Below the pieces are notes generated by a model. It ran no database searches. It had not been told where the DNA came from and saw only the letters and a program-made list of their open reading frames with translations. Below are positions 973 through 4,199 of a DNA stretch of 33,353 nt, one piece after another. Origin of the DNA: Candidatus Omnitrophota bacterium. GTDB lineage: Bacteria; Omnitrophota; Gorgyraeia; Gygaellales; Profunditerraquicolaceae. Every line of letters begins with the position of its first letter. Position 1 is the first letter of the stretch. The position numbers and the translations under genes are program-made. Where the stretch lies: the NCBI GenBank assembly GCA_041651675.1, contig JBAZIT010000002.1, positions 1 through 33,353 on the forward strand, given 5' to 3'.

Positions 973-1770
973 TTACAGCCCTAATTCCCGGCGCAGGTAT
1001 CTTTCATTCACCGGGCCGAAGTCTTCGGCTTCATCCGGGTTATTCATCAGAGAGGCAATGGTTGGACGGAAATATTTCTTGTTCCCGCAGCAGCCGTTAA
1101 AATAACCTACTCTTTCGCCTTTGGCGGTTAAGTCTCCCCAGAGTCTTTGCGCTTCTTCTTTGGTAAAAGCGCAATTAGGCGGCCCAGGTAAACAAAGCGC
1201 TGCTTCGCCCTGCGGACTCTCATCGCGCAGGCCTAAAGAATGGCCTAATTCATGCAGGAAGCCCTTGCTCAAGCTATCCTTATCTTTATACCTGTTCCTC
1301 CCTATGATTATTAAAGACAGCTTATCTATGGAAGAAAGCTCGGAGCAAGAGACAGAGCCTTGCGCGTCAAGGATAATTAGCTTGTAGGTGGCTTTAAGTT
1401 TAGAGGAAAGACTGCTGATAAAATCCTTGCGCACCCTGATAGGCGGGAAATCCTGGGATGGCTTAAAAACTACGCCTGCCTCTTCTTTTGAGAGATTGAT
1501 ATAGTAAAATGAGATATTGTTTAACTCATTAAACGGCTTGACCTTCCTTAAGCTCCCGATAAGAGCTTGGACATCTTCCTGGAAAGTTTTCTTGTCAGGA
1601 TAATTTAAAGGGCAGAAGACTAGGGTAAGCCGGGTATTTGCTTTAAGGGCAAACTCGCCTGCATAAGGCTTAATATCATAGGCGCTGACTCTAGAATAAA
1701 GCAAAAGAATAAGAAAGAAAAAACCGCCTATCTCTAGGCGCCTTATGCTTTTGCGCATACCCTGATCCAT
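973..1770 (-). CDS. secreted zinc metallopeptidase (HExxH; resembles the M64 IgA-peptidase-like family)
   Basis: 265-aa ORF with a hydrophobic N-terminal signal (GGFFFLILLLYSRVSA) and the motif HELGHSLGLRDE. The 5' end overlaps the avd stop. The start could be ATG 1770 or ATG 1758. Confidence 0.6.
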   Translation of the reverse strand: MDQGMRKSIRRLEIGGFFFLILLLYSRVSAYDIKPYAGEFALKANTRLTLVFCPLNYPDKKTFQEDVQALIGSLRKVKPFNELNNISFYYINLSKEEAGVVFKPSQDFPPIRVRKDFISSLSSKLKATYKLIILDAQGSVSCSELSSIDKLSLIIIGRNRYKDKDSLSKGFLHELGHSLGLRDESPQGEAALCLPGPPNCAFTKEEAQRLWGDLTAKGERVGYFNGCCGNKKYFRPTIASLMNNPDEAEDFGPVNERYLRRELGL

Positions 1771-2084
1771 CCTCCCAGCATCCTGCCTATCTCATCTATC
1801 TTTTTACAGATGATGCCGTATTTATTTATACTTATCAAATAAAAATCATTGGCCAGCCGGATAAATATCCGCAATTTTTCCAACTCCACACTTGCTTTTT
1901 TTAGATGCGGCCCTTTTATGCTTTCTTCATTGGCAGTAATGATATACTCTAAAACCCGTAAAAGAGTATCATAAATCCTCTTGCCTAAAACCGGCTTTTC
2001 GGATTTGGGAAATCCGGCTATCTCCCTATGCAGGTATTGTATTAAATCATAGGTTTTAGCGAATATCTTTAAATCGGCTAACAT
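1743..2084 (-). CDS. avd: DGR accessory variability determinant (Avd; four-helix-bundle / 23S rRNA-IVS-like family)
   Basis: 113 aa with an FPKSEKPVLGKRIYDTLLRVLEYIITANE-type signature typical of the four-helix-bundle (TIGR02436-like) family to which Avd belongs. GGAG lies 7 nt upstream of ATG 2084. The gene is adjacent to TR and RT. Confidence 0.8.
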   Translation of the reverse strand: MLADLKIFAKTYDLIQYLHREIAGFPKSEKPVLGKRIYDTLLRVLEYIITANEESIKGPHLKKASVELEKLRIFIRLANDFYLISINKYGIICKKIDEIGRMLGGWIRVCAKA

Positions 2085-2108
2085 AATCTTGCTCCGGATA
2101 AAAATAGC

Positions 2109-2155
2109 GCCGGCAGGTAGTTTTCATCGTTAAAGATTACTATCTATCTGCCGGC
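2109..2155 (-). promoter_or_regulatory. GC-rich inverted repeat between TR and avd (possible DGR-RNA structural element or attenuator)
   Basis: Arms are gccggcaggtag (2109..2120) and ctatctgccggc (2144..2155). That gives 8 perfect GC-rich bp plus 3 more after one mismatch (A.C on the minus-strand RNA, G.U on the plus), with a 23-nt loop. On the minus strand it is followed by GCGCTATTTTTAT and then the avd RBS. Confidence 0.45.
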
Positions 2156-2276
2156 TGTTTTTTATTCGGCCCTCAATTTCAGGGCGCAGGAATAAGTTTG
2201 TAGTTCTCTTTAGCGCGCGGTCTGCATCTCCTTAAAGACACAGAATATCTGGCGCCTAGAGAAAAATAGAGAACTG

Positions 2277-2397
2277 CTTGCAGCAAAGACAACCCTCGCC
2301 GATATTGTTGCTGTTCCATCCGCTGTTGCAGCCTCCGCCCGGCGGTCGGAAGAAGTTGTTGTTGTCGTTGTTGTTGCAGTTGCCCCAGGAACCGAGA
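2277..2397 (-). repeat. DGR template repeat (TR)
   Basis: 121 nt matching VR 3522..3645. Read in the VR frame it encodes LGSWGNCNNNDNNNFFRPPGGGCNSGWNSNNIGEGCLCCK with 10 AAC codons. It begins 11 nt after the RT stop codon (2411..2409). Confidence 0.9.
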
Positions 2398-2408
2398 GGA
2401 CAACCTTG

Positions 2409-3464
2409 TTATAACCTATCCCTTACAACAGGCATCAATACGAAATCCCTGAAAATCTTCTTTCTCAATCTATATGTATCTCCCTGCCTGGCATGCGCTA
2501 TCCATCCTTTTATAAAACTGCTGATCCGGCTTAGCGCTATTTCTTTTCTTACGAACCGCTCTTTCATATTCTTGAGCCTGCGCGCAAATCTTTTCGCATT
2601 CTCTTTTCGCAGTAAACGGTGGCTGGAAAATATCCTGAATCCCAAGAAATCTATGCCGCATTTTAAGGGGGTAACTGTTTGTTTCTTGGGATGGAGGCTC
2701 AATCGCAGCTTATCTTCCAGGAATCGCGCTATCCCTGCCTTGGCCTCCCGAAGCCTCCCCTTGGATAAATCCATCAGCACAAAGTCATCCATATAACGGA
2801 CATAATATTTTATTCTTAAATCATGCTTAACAAACTGGTCAAGGGGGTTTAAATACAGATTGGCAAAAAACTGACTGGTAAGATTCCCTATCGGGATTCC
2901 TTTTGTCTGTGGACTAAATAAACTTTCACCGGCAAGTATTCTCTTTATCAGCCAGATTACCTCTTCATCTTTTATTCTTTCGTTAATCAGGCCAAGCAGG
3001 ATACAATGGTTTATATTTTCAAAATACCTCCGGATATCCGCCTTAAATACATATATTTCGTTTTCATTCCCGCGGGATAATAATTCATGCTTAAACTCCT
3101 CAAGCCTTTTAATCGCCGCTAGTGTCCCCTTGTTTAACCTGCAGGCATAAGTGTCATAAATAAGCCTCTTATCAAAAATCGGCTCAATAACCCGGCATAA
3201 GGCATGGTGCACTACTCTGTCCCGGACAACCGCCGCAACTATTTCCCTCTTTTTAGGTTCATACACAAAAAACCTGTGTGGAGGCAAAGGAGTATAAGTA
3301 TGCTCAATAAGTTCATCCTGCAATTTGAGAAACTCTATTTCATAATTATACTCAAACTTAAGGACATCATCTTTAAATCGCTTGCCTTTGCGGAATGTTT
3401 TATAGGCGGCTAAAAGATTCTCAAACGAAACAACCCTCTCAAACAAATGCTTATACGTTTTCAT
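2409..3464 (-). CDS. DGR-type reverse transcriptase
   Basis: 351 aa carrying the RT motifs, including IGNLTSQFFANLYL (the [I/L]GxxxSQ motif characteristic of DGR RTs) and the YMDD catalytic box (YVRYMDDFVLM). It has no group II intron maturase or endonuclease-like tail. Confidence 0.93.
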   Translation of the reverse strand: MKTYKHLFERVVSFENLLAAYKTFRKGKRFKDDVLKFEYNYEIEFLKLQDELIEHTYTPLPPHRFFVYEPKKREIVAAVVRDRVVHHALCRVIEPIFDKRLIYDTYACRLNKGTLAAIKRLEEFKHELLSRGNENEIYVFKADIRRYFENINHCILLGLINERIKDEEVIWLIKRILAGESLFSPQTKGIPIGNLTSQFFANLYLNPLDQFVKHDLRIKYYVRYMDDFVLMDLSKGRLREAKAGIARFLEDKLRLSLHPKKQTVTPLKCGIDFLGFRIFSSHRLLRKENAKRFARRLKNMKERFVRKEIALSRISSFIKGWIAHARQGDTYRLRKKIFRDFVLMPVVRDRL

Positions 3465-3518
3465 TCAAAAACCAAAAGATTTCAGATTCTCAGATACCAG
3501 ATACCAAAAAAACCTTAA

Positions 3519-4199
3519 CTACTGGCAGCAAAGACAACCCTCGCCGATATTGCCGCTGCTCCATCCGCTGTAGCAGCCTCCGCCCGGCGGTCGGAAGAAG
3601 TTGGCGTTGTCGGGGCCGTAGTAGCAGGAGCCCCAGGAACCGAGATCTTTCTTAAGTGTCCAACCACTAGGGCAGCTACAACTGCCCACGGCACTGGAAT
3701 AGTCTACATAGCAGGTACTCCCTCCTCCCTGCGCTACCCAGGTAGAGCCGTTATGGGCATAGAGAGCGCCTTCTGTGGTATCGTAAACCAGCATACCTGC
3801 GGTTGGTGAAGATATGGCATTCTTCTGGGCAGTAGTCATCCGCGGAGGGATAAAGGCCTTAGAGGTGCTGGAGAGCTCAAGGATAGAGTTGGGGTTGGGA
3901 TTTGTCGTCCCTATCCCCACATTCCCCTCTACTACCAGGTCTGCCAGATAGTCAATCTCTCCTCCGTCTCCGTTTTCCTCCTCCCAGGTATAATCAGGGT
4001 TATCAATGTAGTTATCTCCTATGGCCAGGCGCTGGGAGCGCATCTCCCGGTATACTCCGTAGGGAGAAGGATAGTAGGTGGTGATGGTCAGGGTATCTTC
4101 GGCAAAGGCTACTGGAGGATTAAAGGCGAGAGCAAAGAAAAAACTCAGAGAGAGAGAGAGAGAGAGAGAGAGAGAGAGAGAGAGAGAGAGGAAAAACAT
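3519..4199 (-). CDS. DGR target protein: secreted, with a tail-fibre/adhesin-like middle region and a Cys-rich variable C-terminus
   Basis: 226 aa with the signal-like N-terminus MFF(LS)8FFFALAFNPPVAFA. Internal motifs are LVVEGNVGIGTTNPNPN and IPPRMTTAQKNAISSPTAGMLVYDT. The C-terminal 41 aa are the VR. Confidence 0.85.
   Translation of the reverse strand: MFFLSLSLSLSLSLSLSLSFFFALAFNPPVAFAEDTLTITTYYPSPYGVYREMRSQRLAIGDNYIDNPDYTWEEENGDGGEIDYLADLVVEGNVGIGTTNPNPNSILELSSTSKAFIPPRMTTAQKNAISSPTAGMLVYDTTEGALYAHNGSTWVAQGGGSTCYVDYSSAVGSCSCPSGWTLKKDLGSWGSCYYGPDNANFFRPPGGGCYSGWSSGNIGEGCLCCQ
3522..3645 (-). repeat. DGR variable repeat (VR), last 41 codons of the target gene
   Basis: Aligns to TR 2277..2397. 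I count 14 substitutions, every one at a plus-strand T of TR (an A on the coding strand): TR 2279, 2308, 2309, 2314, 2327, 2359, 2360, five within 2368..2376, and 2380, 2381. There is also one extra codon in VR inside the (AAC)3 tract. Confidence 0.9.
4147..4190 (-). repeat. perfect (AG)22 / (CT)22 dinucleotide microsatellite inside the target-gene signal-peptide codons
   Basis: Direct reading shows 44 nt of uninterrupted ag repeats starting 9 nt downstream of the ATG. They are translated as (LS)n. Confidence 0.98.

Follow-up and report, generated by a model that had tools for sequence, protein, structure and literature searches.

The DNA analysed here is a 33,353-nt stretch of an assembly of a Candidatus Omnitrophota bacterium (contig JBAZIT010000002.1, positions 1 to 33,353; hereafter, the window), and the subject is a compact cassette near its left end that we interpret as a diversity-generating retroelement (DGR). 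On the minus strand, its features follow one another in the order target gene, reverse transcriptase (RT) gene, template repeat (TR), structured RNA, avd, and a fifth gene. The body of the target, or variable protein, gene (3519..4199) is open from an ATG at 4199 and encodes 226 aa; the variable repeat (VR; 3517..3645) makes up its last 41 codons and its stop codon. Next come the gene for an RT of 351 aa (2409..3464), the TR (2272..2397), an RNA with three hairpins that matches the Rfam family RT-14 (RF02921; 2109..2265), and the accessory gene avd, encoding 113 aa (1743..2084). The last gene (973..1770) encodes an exported metalloprotease-like protein of 265 aa with an HELGH (HExxH) motif, and its start overlaps the end of avd. 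The whole 3.4-kb cassette occupies 921..4315, where it is inserted between a DEAD-box helicase gene and carB. A preliminary description, made from the letters of this DNA, had placed a complete DGR at 1743-4199 on the strength of four hallmarks, namely, the RT, the repeat pair, the placement of VR and TR, and an Avd-like gene. All four lie where it had put them, on the minus strand, and the core it delimited stands; the functional unit is larger, extending over 921..4315 and including the fifth gene and the structured RNA. The (CT)22 tract in the target gene, the GTG start upstream of that tract, the RT-14 RNA, and the linkage of the fifth gene were not part of that description.

The repeat pair carries the signature expected of a DGR. 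A repeat finder returned 2272-2397 and 3517-3645 as one long direct pair in two registers 3 nt apart; it is the only such pair in the window, previously listed with lengths of 121 and 124 nt, and its members differ by one codon. The conserved TR blocks occur in exactly two copies in the window, with zero expected from shuffled sequences. TR and VR are separated by 13 substitutions at TR adenines, one C-to-T change, and one 3-nt indel that gives the VR an extra codon. The lone substitution outside the adenines is the one that sets the TR codon CAG against TAG, the stop codon of the VR. Adenine accounts for 33 of the 125 TR bases (26%) and for 13 of the 14 substituted positions (Fisher p = 4.4e-8; binomial p = 3e-7). 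Read in the frame of the VR, the TR has 30 of the 33 adenines at the first or second position of a codon, and its codons include 10 AAC and 1 AAT, in agreement with its earlier portrayal as non-coding and rich in Asn codons; its capacity amounts to ~1e17 peptide variants. The TR lies in the intergenic space between the RT gene and avd, beginning 12 nt past the RT stop codon. The VR closes an open reading frame (ORF; 4199..3519) whose product has a signal-peptide-like N-terminus, and the proposal that the diversified protein is secreted or displayed on the surface fits this arrangement. The two repeats are identical in an adenine-poor 3' block (~3545..3517 in the VR) that resembles an initiation of mutagenic homing (IMH) site, and 1-2 mismatches set their ends apart. 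No further VR or remote target was found in the window, where a single gene carries the N-terminal motif of the target's family.

The RT contains both of the motifs by which it had been recognised, IGNLTSQ and YMDD, within the segments GIPIGNLTSQFF and RYMDDF of ORF 3464..2409, and it matches Pfam RVT_1. Its best solved relative is a 328-aa chain named "Reverse transcriptase" in PDB entry 8ub7 and its sister entries (8ub7-8ube; E = 1.1e-51, 179 bits), which we take to be bRT of Bordetella phage BPP-1. The alignment runs from end to end, with the IGSLTSQ and YMDD of that chain in register. Other RTs in PDB scored far lower (group II intron, 2e-28; retron-type, 1e-23; Drt3a, 5e-6), and the non-DGR RT families of NCBIfam, a collection that holds no DGR RT model, all stayed far below their own cutoffs, the AbiA model included. 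A comparison with these RT classes, suggested together with the preliminary description as a check, therefore places the enzyme with the DGR RTs. When the RT was used to scan GTDB genomes, the scan returned only distant DGR RTs from other phyla, at no more than 45% identity over comparable lengths, among them that of contig L005 (contigs from other sources are denoted by L and a number), and no Omnitrophota genome. The Avd protein (ORF 2084..1743) scores above the cutoffs of both the NCBIfam equivalog model DivGenRetAVD (NF033474; 106 bits, cutoff 80) and Pfam bAvd (PF22296; 81 bits, cutoff 40).

Copies of the same locus in other samples bear on whether the element is active. The product of ORF 1770..973 is encoded in identical form on six other contigs. 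The DNA of five of these (L123-L125, L127, and L128) matches the window at 99.3-100% identity across the aligned parts, and that of L126 at 93%. The TR is exactly the same in five of the six; that of L126 differs. Contig L123 (Logan SRR21285878, another sample) aligns to positions 4172..1 of the window with 32 differing alignment columns, all of them in 3629..3559, inside the VR; the remaining ~4.1 kb and the TR are identical. Its VR is 15 nt longer than that of the window, and every codon of its first loop is of the form NNC, the outcome that mutagenesis of AAC codons would predict. In L125 (ENA ERZ27247363), the VR is the same as in the window, the tract is (CT)21 instead of (CT)22, and two single-nucleotide polymorphisms occur over 3.8 kb. 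The heterogeneity restricted to the VR that had been proposed as a test is thus present in this contig-level comparison. Two assemblies of one locus carry wholly different VRs in otherwise identical 4.1 kb; therefore, the turnover of the VR is recent. We conclude with high confidence that this is a complete and recently active DGR. It is, with little doubt, a new member of a well-known class of elements, with a mechanism that is canonical as far as it is testable.

Related cassettes occur at other loci. The same five genes, at 85-89% nucleotide identity over ~992..4315, are found elsewhere in L001, where they adjoin a TilS-like gene (weak Pfam match), in L004 and L052, where they come after MreBCD-PBP2-RodA and a radical-SAM gene, and in L086; L122 and L118 hold more distant versions. 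An 18-mer scan of metagenomes gave 78 loci, among which the true relatives were solely L052, L086, L102, L079, and L089, and three matches in an 18-mer scan of viral contigs were discarded as chance matches in an unrelated frame. The adenine-specific pattern of TR/VR differences is reproduced in L001, L004, L086, and L122. Five TRs are equal in length and keep every adenine, and their cognate VRs vary at those positions as well as in length, with the loop codons of the close cassettes keeping C at the third position (NNC). Relative to its TR, the VR is one codon longer in the window and in L004, three in L118, and six in L122, one codon shorter in L001, and of equal length in L086; that is, length differs in five of the six cognate pairs of the lineage, with the indels at AAC runs. 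One-codon VR indels beside AAC runs have been reported in ~7% of DGRs (PMC5758913), and VR indels at such runs have been attributed to template slippage (PMC5758913, PMC12875486). The change in VR length is thus a known phenomenon that is unusually frequent in this lineage. The extra VR codons adjoin identical neighbours (TAC TAC; GGC GGC), which fits slippage of the RT and duplication after homing alike. We rejected the idea that the TR of the window has lost a codon, since the five TRs have the same length and it is the VRs that vary.

Some members of the family have decayed. L118 has a truncated RT gene. L079 and L089 keep the target gene and the fifth gene, and between the two they retain ~110 nt of the 5' end of the RT gene and, in L089, also the 3' end of avd; therefore, RT-TR-avd has been deleted from these loci, which are deletion derivatives with a frozen VR. 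The surroundings of several cassettes contain further repeats or mobility genes. In L118 (Omnitrophota metagenome-assembled genome GCA_028687525.1), a 187-nt direct repeat is present in three copies that are 95-96% identical (4759-4945, 7770-7956, and 9456-9636); these flank first the decaying DGR cassette and next a Fic gene, a layout like that of a cassette array. An IS200-like Y1 transposase gene stands directly after the cassette of L004 (10713-11342), and an HTH_17 gene and a phage-type integrase gene lie 1.2 kb after that of L122 (4171-5483).

The insertion itself can be seen by comparison with sister genomes. Nine sister contigs, chosen as encoding an identical cold-shock protein, match the window as far as 4315 and then again from 920 on, so that the helicase gene is directly followed by carB. 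The empty site reads ...TTCTACCGCT|AAATTAATC..., and the occupied site reads ...TTCTACCGC|TGATTC...GGGGGAT|TATCGCTAAATTAATC..., with the 7-nt sequence TA(C/T)CGCT at both junctions of the cassette (4315/4316 and 920/921). The stop codon of the helicase gene is supplied by the cassette, and the cassette of L004 does likewise for its own upstream gene. Neither a recombinase nor terminal inverted repeats were found for the cassette. Given empty sites with the helicase gene directly before carB, the element is a bare 3.4-kb cassette rather than part of a prophage. The flanks are the housekeeping genes named in the preliminary description: the helicase gene (5596..4313) was identified by a Pfam search, and carB by gene calls on contigs that match the window at 99-100% identity, which put its start ~229 nt past the end of ORF 1770..973. 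Of the other ORFs of the window, the ten largest encode cellular proteins (complex-I/hydrogenase-like subunits, MsrAB, GT2, CofD, and a PAS histidine kinase), and, as that description had it, no phage structural genes are among them. Its verdict of a cellular rather than a prophage DGR accordingly holds in a qualified form, given the insertion, the other contexts elsewhere, and a tail-fibre-like module in the target: the element is cellular and chromosomal, yet it is a discrete insertion.

The 226-aa target consists, from N- to C-terminus, of a signal peptide, a TITTYYPSPYGVY module, a tail-fibre-like central module, and a Cys-rich C-terminal domain of 69 aa. The N-terminal module, (E/D)(T/S)(L/I)TITTYYPSPYG(V/S)Y..., is common to many Omnitrophota proteins with other C-terminal domains (Peptidase_S74 "tail fiber," C1q, and others), some of which are annotated as "tail fiber domain-containing." The central segment has a weak match to Pfam Mtd_N. 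Its fold also matches phage tail-fibre-like proteins in BFVD, at E values as low as 6e-5 and, for several of them, with 40-50% identity across a stretch of ~60 residues, and residues 59-137 have one relative in IMG/VR. A PDB sequence search with the target was empty. The C-terminal domain contains eight cysteines, and its last 41 residues are the VR. A HMMER scan of 1.84 billion representatives recovered 67 relatives of this domain, ~50 of them with the domain at the extreme C-terminus; the VR domain was not recovered from IMG/VR.

AlphaFold2 (AF2) modelled the C-terminal half of the full-length target with pLDDT values of 76-96 and the last 75 aa alone with a value of 87, the latter as all beta-strand with no helix. 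In a Foldseek search of PDB, the isolated domain gave no match below E = 0.5, and no C-type lectin, Mtd, or TvpA was among its top 50; its best TM-score (TMq) was 0.49-0.52, to collagen IV NC1. The full-length model matched Mtd with E = 0.6 and a root mean square deviation of 15 A only. According to a global survey, annotated VR regions are systematically C-type-lectin folds, and unannotated ones are expected to be variants of that fold (PMC8144416). The structure predicted here appears to fall outside it. The VR domain is therefore a candidate exception to the C-type-lectin rule, as judged from a model predicted from a shallow alignment.

The 5' end of the target gene contains a feature of a different kind. 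A Shine-Dalgarno (SD) sequence, GGAGG, with a 6-nt spacer precedes a GTG start codon (4213..4226; GTG at 4215..4213), and a simple-sequence repeat (SSR), (CT)22, follows within the signal-peptide codons (4147..4190). Five cassettes share the GGAGG, a spacer of 5-6 nt, a start codon (GTG, TTG, TTG, GTG, and ATG), a basic n-region of the form PK(L/P/Q).../PKL(R/K).., and a CT tract. The gene body given in the preliminary description stands, and its start is to be revised from ATG 4199 to the conserved GTG. The tract reads (LS)n in every frame, and the exit frame alone matters. It comprises 22 CT units in the window, 15 in L001, 25 in L004, 16 in L122, 7 in L118, and 21 in L125, which represents the same locus as the window. 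The GTG frame of the window hits a stop just after the tract, with the gene body in the +1 frame, and one more CT unit or two fewer would restore it; the conserved start of L004 also hits a stop just after the tract, with the body in the +2 frame, and L125 is out of frame. The conserved start of L001 is in frame with the body, and the products called from it in L122 and L118 run full length. For the out-of-frame alleles (window, L004, and L125), the database calls begin at an internal Met and give 174 aa. SLSLSLSL leaders are present in other members of the protein family as well, and target-type genes with no RT on their contig (L002 and L102) have no CT tract. Judging from these alleles, the target is likely subject to phase variation by slipped-strand mispairing in the (CT)n tract. 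The literature search returned general reviews and gut-phage papers, in the titles and abstracts of which no SSR switch in a DGR target gene is evidently described.

Next to the TR lies the structured RNA. The match to RT-14 (2265..2109) is full length, scores 50.9 bits against a gathering score of 48.1, and begins 7 nt 3' of the TR. RT-14 occupies the same position in L001 and L086 (50.6 bits each) and, just under the threshold, in L052, L122, and L118 (47.3, 45.2, and 43.7 bits). All told, RT-14 lies directly 3' of the TR in seven cassettes. It is also present in a DGR of Desulfoscipio geothermicus (L005 3813-3975; 60.3 bits), where the order is VR..TR-RT-14-RT, with TR before RT in the classical way, and each of the 18 positions at which TR and VR mismatch is a TR adenine. 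Eight copies, when aligned, fold to a three-hairpin consensus in which eight pairs are kept through two-sided, compensatory changes, the same architecture as that of the Rfam family (Weinberg et al. 2017, PMC5737381). The paper on the RT motifs tied RT-10 alone to a DGR, as the spacer between TR and RT of BPP-1, and only speculated on the other RT motifs (PMC5737381); we found no paper in the literature that joins RT-14 and DGRs. Its position against a verified TR in two phyla and in two gene orders assigns RT-14 to DGRs. Because RT-14 invariably lies against the 3' end of a verified TR, irrespective of the next gene, we infer that it may be the functional counterpart of the BPP-1 spacer, a candidate element for priming cDNA synthesis.

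The fifth gene appears to belong with the target. Its ORF (1770..973) overlaps the end of avd, and the gene as called in related cassettes shares 16 nt with avd. The protein has a signal or anchor sequence and the HELGH motif at residue 173. Its match to Pfam Peptidase_M64 (PF09471), at 23.1 bits, is below the cutoff of 26 and lies outside the active-site region; for some homologues a precomputed match to PF09471 exists, and no relative was found in PDB. The family comprises at least 230 clusters, and every source-given name among them is Omnitrophota. The names borne by homologues likewise assign the organism to Candidatus Omnitrophota. A homologue follows a target-type gene in 11 other contigs, with or without RT-TR-avd between the two: it comes after RT-TR-avd in L001, L004, L086, L122, and L118, directly adjoins the target-type gene in L102, L002, and L003, and comes after remnants of RT or avd in L079 and L089, and in L052, a contig that begins inside the RT gene and does not include the target gene, it follows avd. 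NCBI locus tags show the same adjacency of target and fifth gene. The fifth gene accompanies the target with or without the retroelement, and its association is thus with the former, not with the latter. By way of speculation, its product might mature or process the target.

Three other explanations of the locus have to be weighed. The element could be a decayed, inactive relic in which the differences between VR and TR are only historical. The extra codon of the VR and the one non-adenine difference would suit a relic, as would a target out of frame with its conserved start in the window assembly and the decay of related cassettes (the truncated RT of L118; L079 and L089 without RT-TR-avd). 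Yet all ORFs are intact, the RT has the catalytic YMDD, and the TR is unchanged in five of the six contigs that encode the identical fifth-gene protein. One-codon VR indels beside AAC runs are, moreover, a documented property of DGRs (PMC5758913), and the two assemblies that differ wholly in the VR within otherwise identical 4.1 kb are hard to square with inactivity, which makes a relic highly improbable. The variation in the VR could instead stem from gene conversion or recombination among paralogous tail-fibre-like genes, with no part played by reverse transcription. Omnitrophota genomes do have many paralogues that share the N-terminal module, and the VR of L123 has insertions and some non-adenine changes. 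However, only two TR-like copies exist in the window, the differences track TR adenines, the loop codons keep NNC in the VRs of close cassettes, and an intact RT and Avd adjoin; we give this explanation almost no credence.

The element could also be the DGR of a prophage or phage-derived particle that diversifies a tail fibre for recognition of a host or other target, in the way known from Bordetella phage BPP-1. In favour of this, the central module of the target has BFVD matches, an IMG/VR relative, and a weak Mtd_N match, members of its family bear "tail fiber domain-containing" names, and the cassette of L122 is 1.2 kb from an integrase gene. Against it, the empty sites show that the five-gene cassette alone was inserted, phage structural genes are absent among the large ORFs of the window, the VR domain was not recovered from IMG/VR, and the target has a predicted cleavable signal peptide, unlike virion tail fibres; a phage origin of this kind is very unlikely. 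We thus retain the reading of a complete, recently active, cellular DGR with a probably switchable target. Several points weigh against parts of it. IMH and its counterpart IMH* are barely differentiated, by 1-2 mismatches at the 3' end, and no stable hairpin was found downstream of the VR (z = -0.30). The class assignment of the RT rests on PDB relatives and motifs. Plain adenine mutagenesis does not account for everything in the VR of L123, which includes a 12-nt insertion and a small number of differences at positions other than adenine. Heterogeneity of the VR and the SSR was judged from assembled contigs, and assemblies can mis-size dinucleotide repeats. Finally, the window allele may not be fully off, since the gene body can be read from ATG 4199, immediately before the tract; this start has neither a good SD sequence nor the basic n-region.

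Other sites in the window relate to expression of the cassette or to its neighbourhood. An extended -10-like motif, TGGTATAAT, was read by eye upstream of the target gene (4289..4297, minus strand) and has a conserved counterpart at the left end of the cassette in L004; a -35/-10 consensus scan did not pick it up. On its sequence and position, it is a putative cassette promoter. A promoter and terminator scan of the window gave site counts at chance level, and its sole notable site was a terminator-like hairpin (1740..1725, minus strand), CGCCTAGAGATAGGCG plus a T-run, directly after the avd stop codon and within the 5' end of the fifth gene, which could be an attenuator or a chance match. No tRNAs were found in the window. 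Sister genomes of the L129 type, whose contigs join ~18010 to ~7985, lack a segment of ~10 kb (7986-18009); this segment, which carries genes for MBL-rhodanese, OsmC, and MsrAB as well as a membrane-bound hydrogenase/complex-I-like cluster, is a second presence/absence polymorphism beside the DGR cassette.

The features of the locus suggest the following course of events. The cassette would be transcribed as one minus-strand unit. RT and Avd would bind the TR RNA together with RT-14, the latter in the role of the Bordetella phage spacer and priming cDNA synthesis, and the RT-Avd complex would produce a mutagenised cDNA from the TR RNA, with random misincorporation opposite adenines. Two blocks, the adenine-poor GGCGAGGGTTGTCTTTGCTGC..AGTT on the 3' side and CTCGGTTCCTGGGGC on the 5' side, would guide the replacement of the VR by this cDNA. 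Two loops of the predicted 69-residue, eight-cysteine, all-beta domain would thereby be recoded at 21 codons, giving ~1e17 possible peptides, and in-frame length changes would occasionally arise at AAC runs. The variable domain would sit at the tip of the signal-peptide-bearing, tail-fibre-like protein, presumably a ligand-binding fibre at the surface, which may be trimeric. Slippage in the (CT)n tract would put the gene in or out of frame with the SD-GTG start, with on/off phase variation as the outcome.

More tentatively, the locus may represent a new kind of two-tier contingency locus, an extension that we regard as possible but somewhat doubtful. A secreted fibre gene would be both hypermutated by the DGR and switched by the (CT)n tract; it would combine a novel, disulfide-rich mini-domain that is not a C-type lectin and changes its loop lengths, an M64-like protease, and an RT-14 priming RNA in a mobile module of 3.4 kb, by which a fibre for attachment to a host could be varied or masked. 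Omnitrophota have been proposed to be host-dependent nanobacteria (PMC10066038).

Whatever the fate of that extension, the locus is a compact, evidently active chromosomal DGR from an uncultured and probably host-dependent phylum, and it makes a useful comparative case. To our knowledge, no natural system other than DGRs hypermutates proteins of prokaryotes in a targeted way, and a single phage is the source of nearly everything known about the mechanism. The comparative value lies in a different gene order, an RT-14 RNA that abuts the TR, a very small and apparently non-lectin variable domain, and frequent in-frame changes of VR length. Of specialist interest, as far as the sequences tell, would be the probable SSR switch, the small domain, the length changes, the assignment of RT-14, and the portable cassette linked to a protease. 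Judging from the (CT)n tract, cells may also be able to silence the hypervariable fibre; if this is so, a single surface protein would undergo both stochastic on/off switching and hypermutation of its sequence. For engineers of DGR-based diversification tools, the 69-residue scaffold and the small size of the cassette (3.4 kb) could be of interest as well.

Several known systems resemble parts of this locus. In SSR contingency loci such as Neisseria opa, CTCTT repeats lie in signal-peptide codons. Here, too, the repeat is in the codons of the leader peptide, and its length differs between near-identical strains and sets the frame; the unit here is the dinucleotide CT, and the putative switch is joined in one gene with DGR hypermutation. 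Another parallel is the DGR of Bordetella phage BPP-1 (mtd-avd-TR-Sp-brt, where Sp is the spacer), with which our locus has in common a homologous RT (1e-51 to the PDB 8ub7 chain, presumably bRT) with IG(N/S)LTSQ and YMDD, an Avd, adenine-specific transfer from TR to VR, and a VR that encodes the C-terminal end of a receptor-binding protein of fibre-like type. Both have a structured RNA directly 3' of the TR, which in BPP-1 is the Rfam RT-10/spacer region (PMC5737381). The two differ in gene order (target-RT-TR-RNA-avd here, target-avd-TR-Sp-RT in BPP-1), in location (chromosomal versus phage), and in the RNA family (RT-14 versus RT-10). Whereas the VR domain of Mtd has a C-type-lectin fold, that of our target is predicted to be a Cys-rich, all-beta domain of 69 aa; no hairpin follows the VR here, and the target has a signal peptide and an SSR. 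Among cellular DGRs, the targets LdtA of Legionella and TvpA of Treponema are exported proteins with C-type-lectin VR domains. Those systems share with ours a chromosomal or island-borne location, a single adjacent target with an export signal, an Avd, and presumed binding of ligands at the surface; they differ in that no C-type-lectin similarity was detected in our target, which is accompanied by a metalloprotease-like gene and an SSR. One-codon indels beside AAC runs, as documented in 7% of DGRs (PMC5758913), are a further point in common; a further difference is that VR and TR differ in length in five of six cognate pairs of this lineage.

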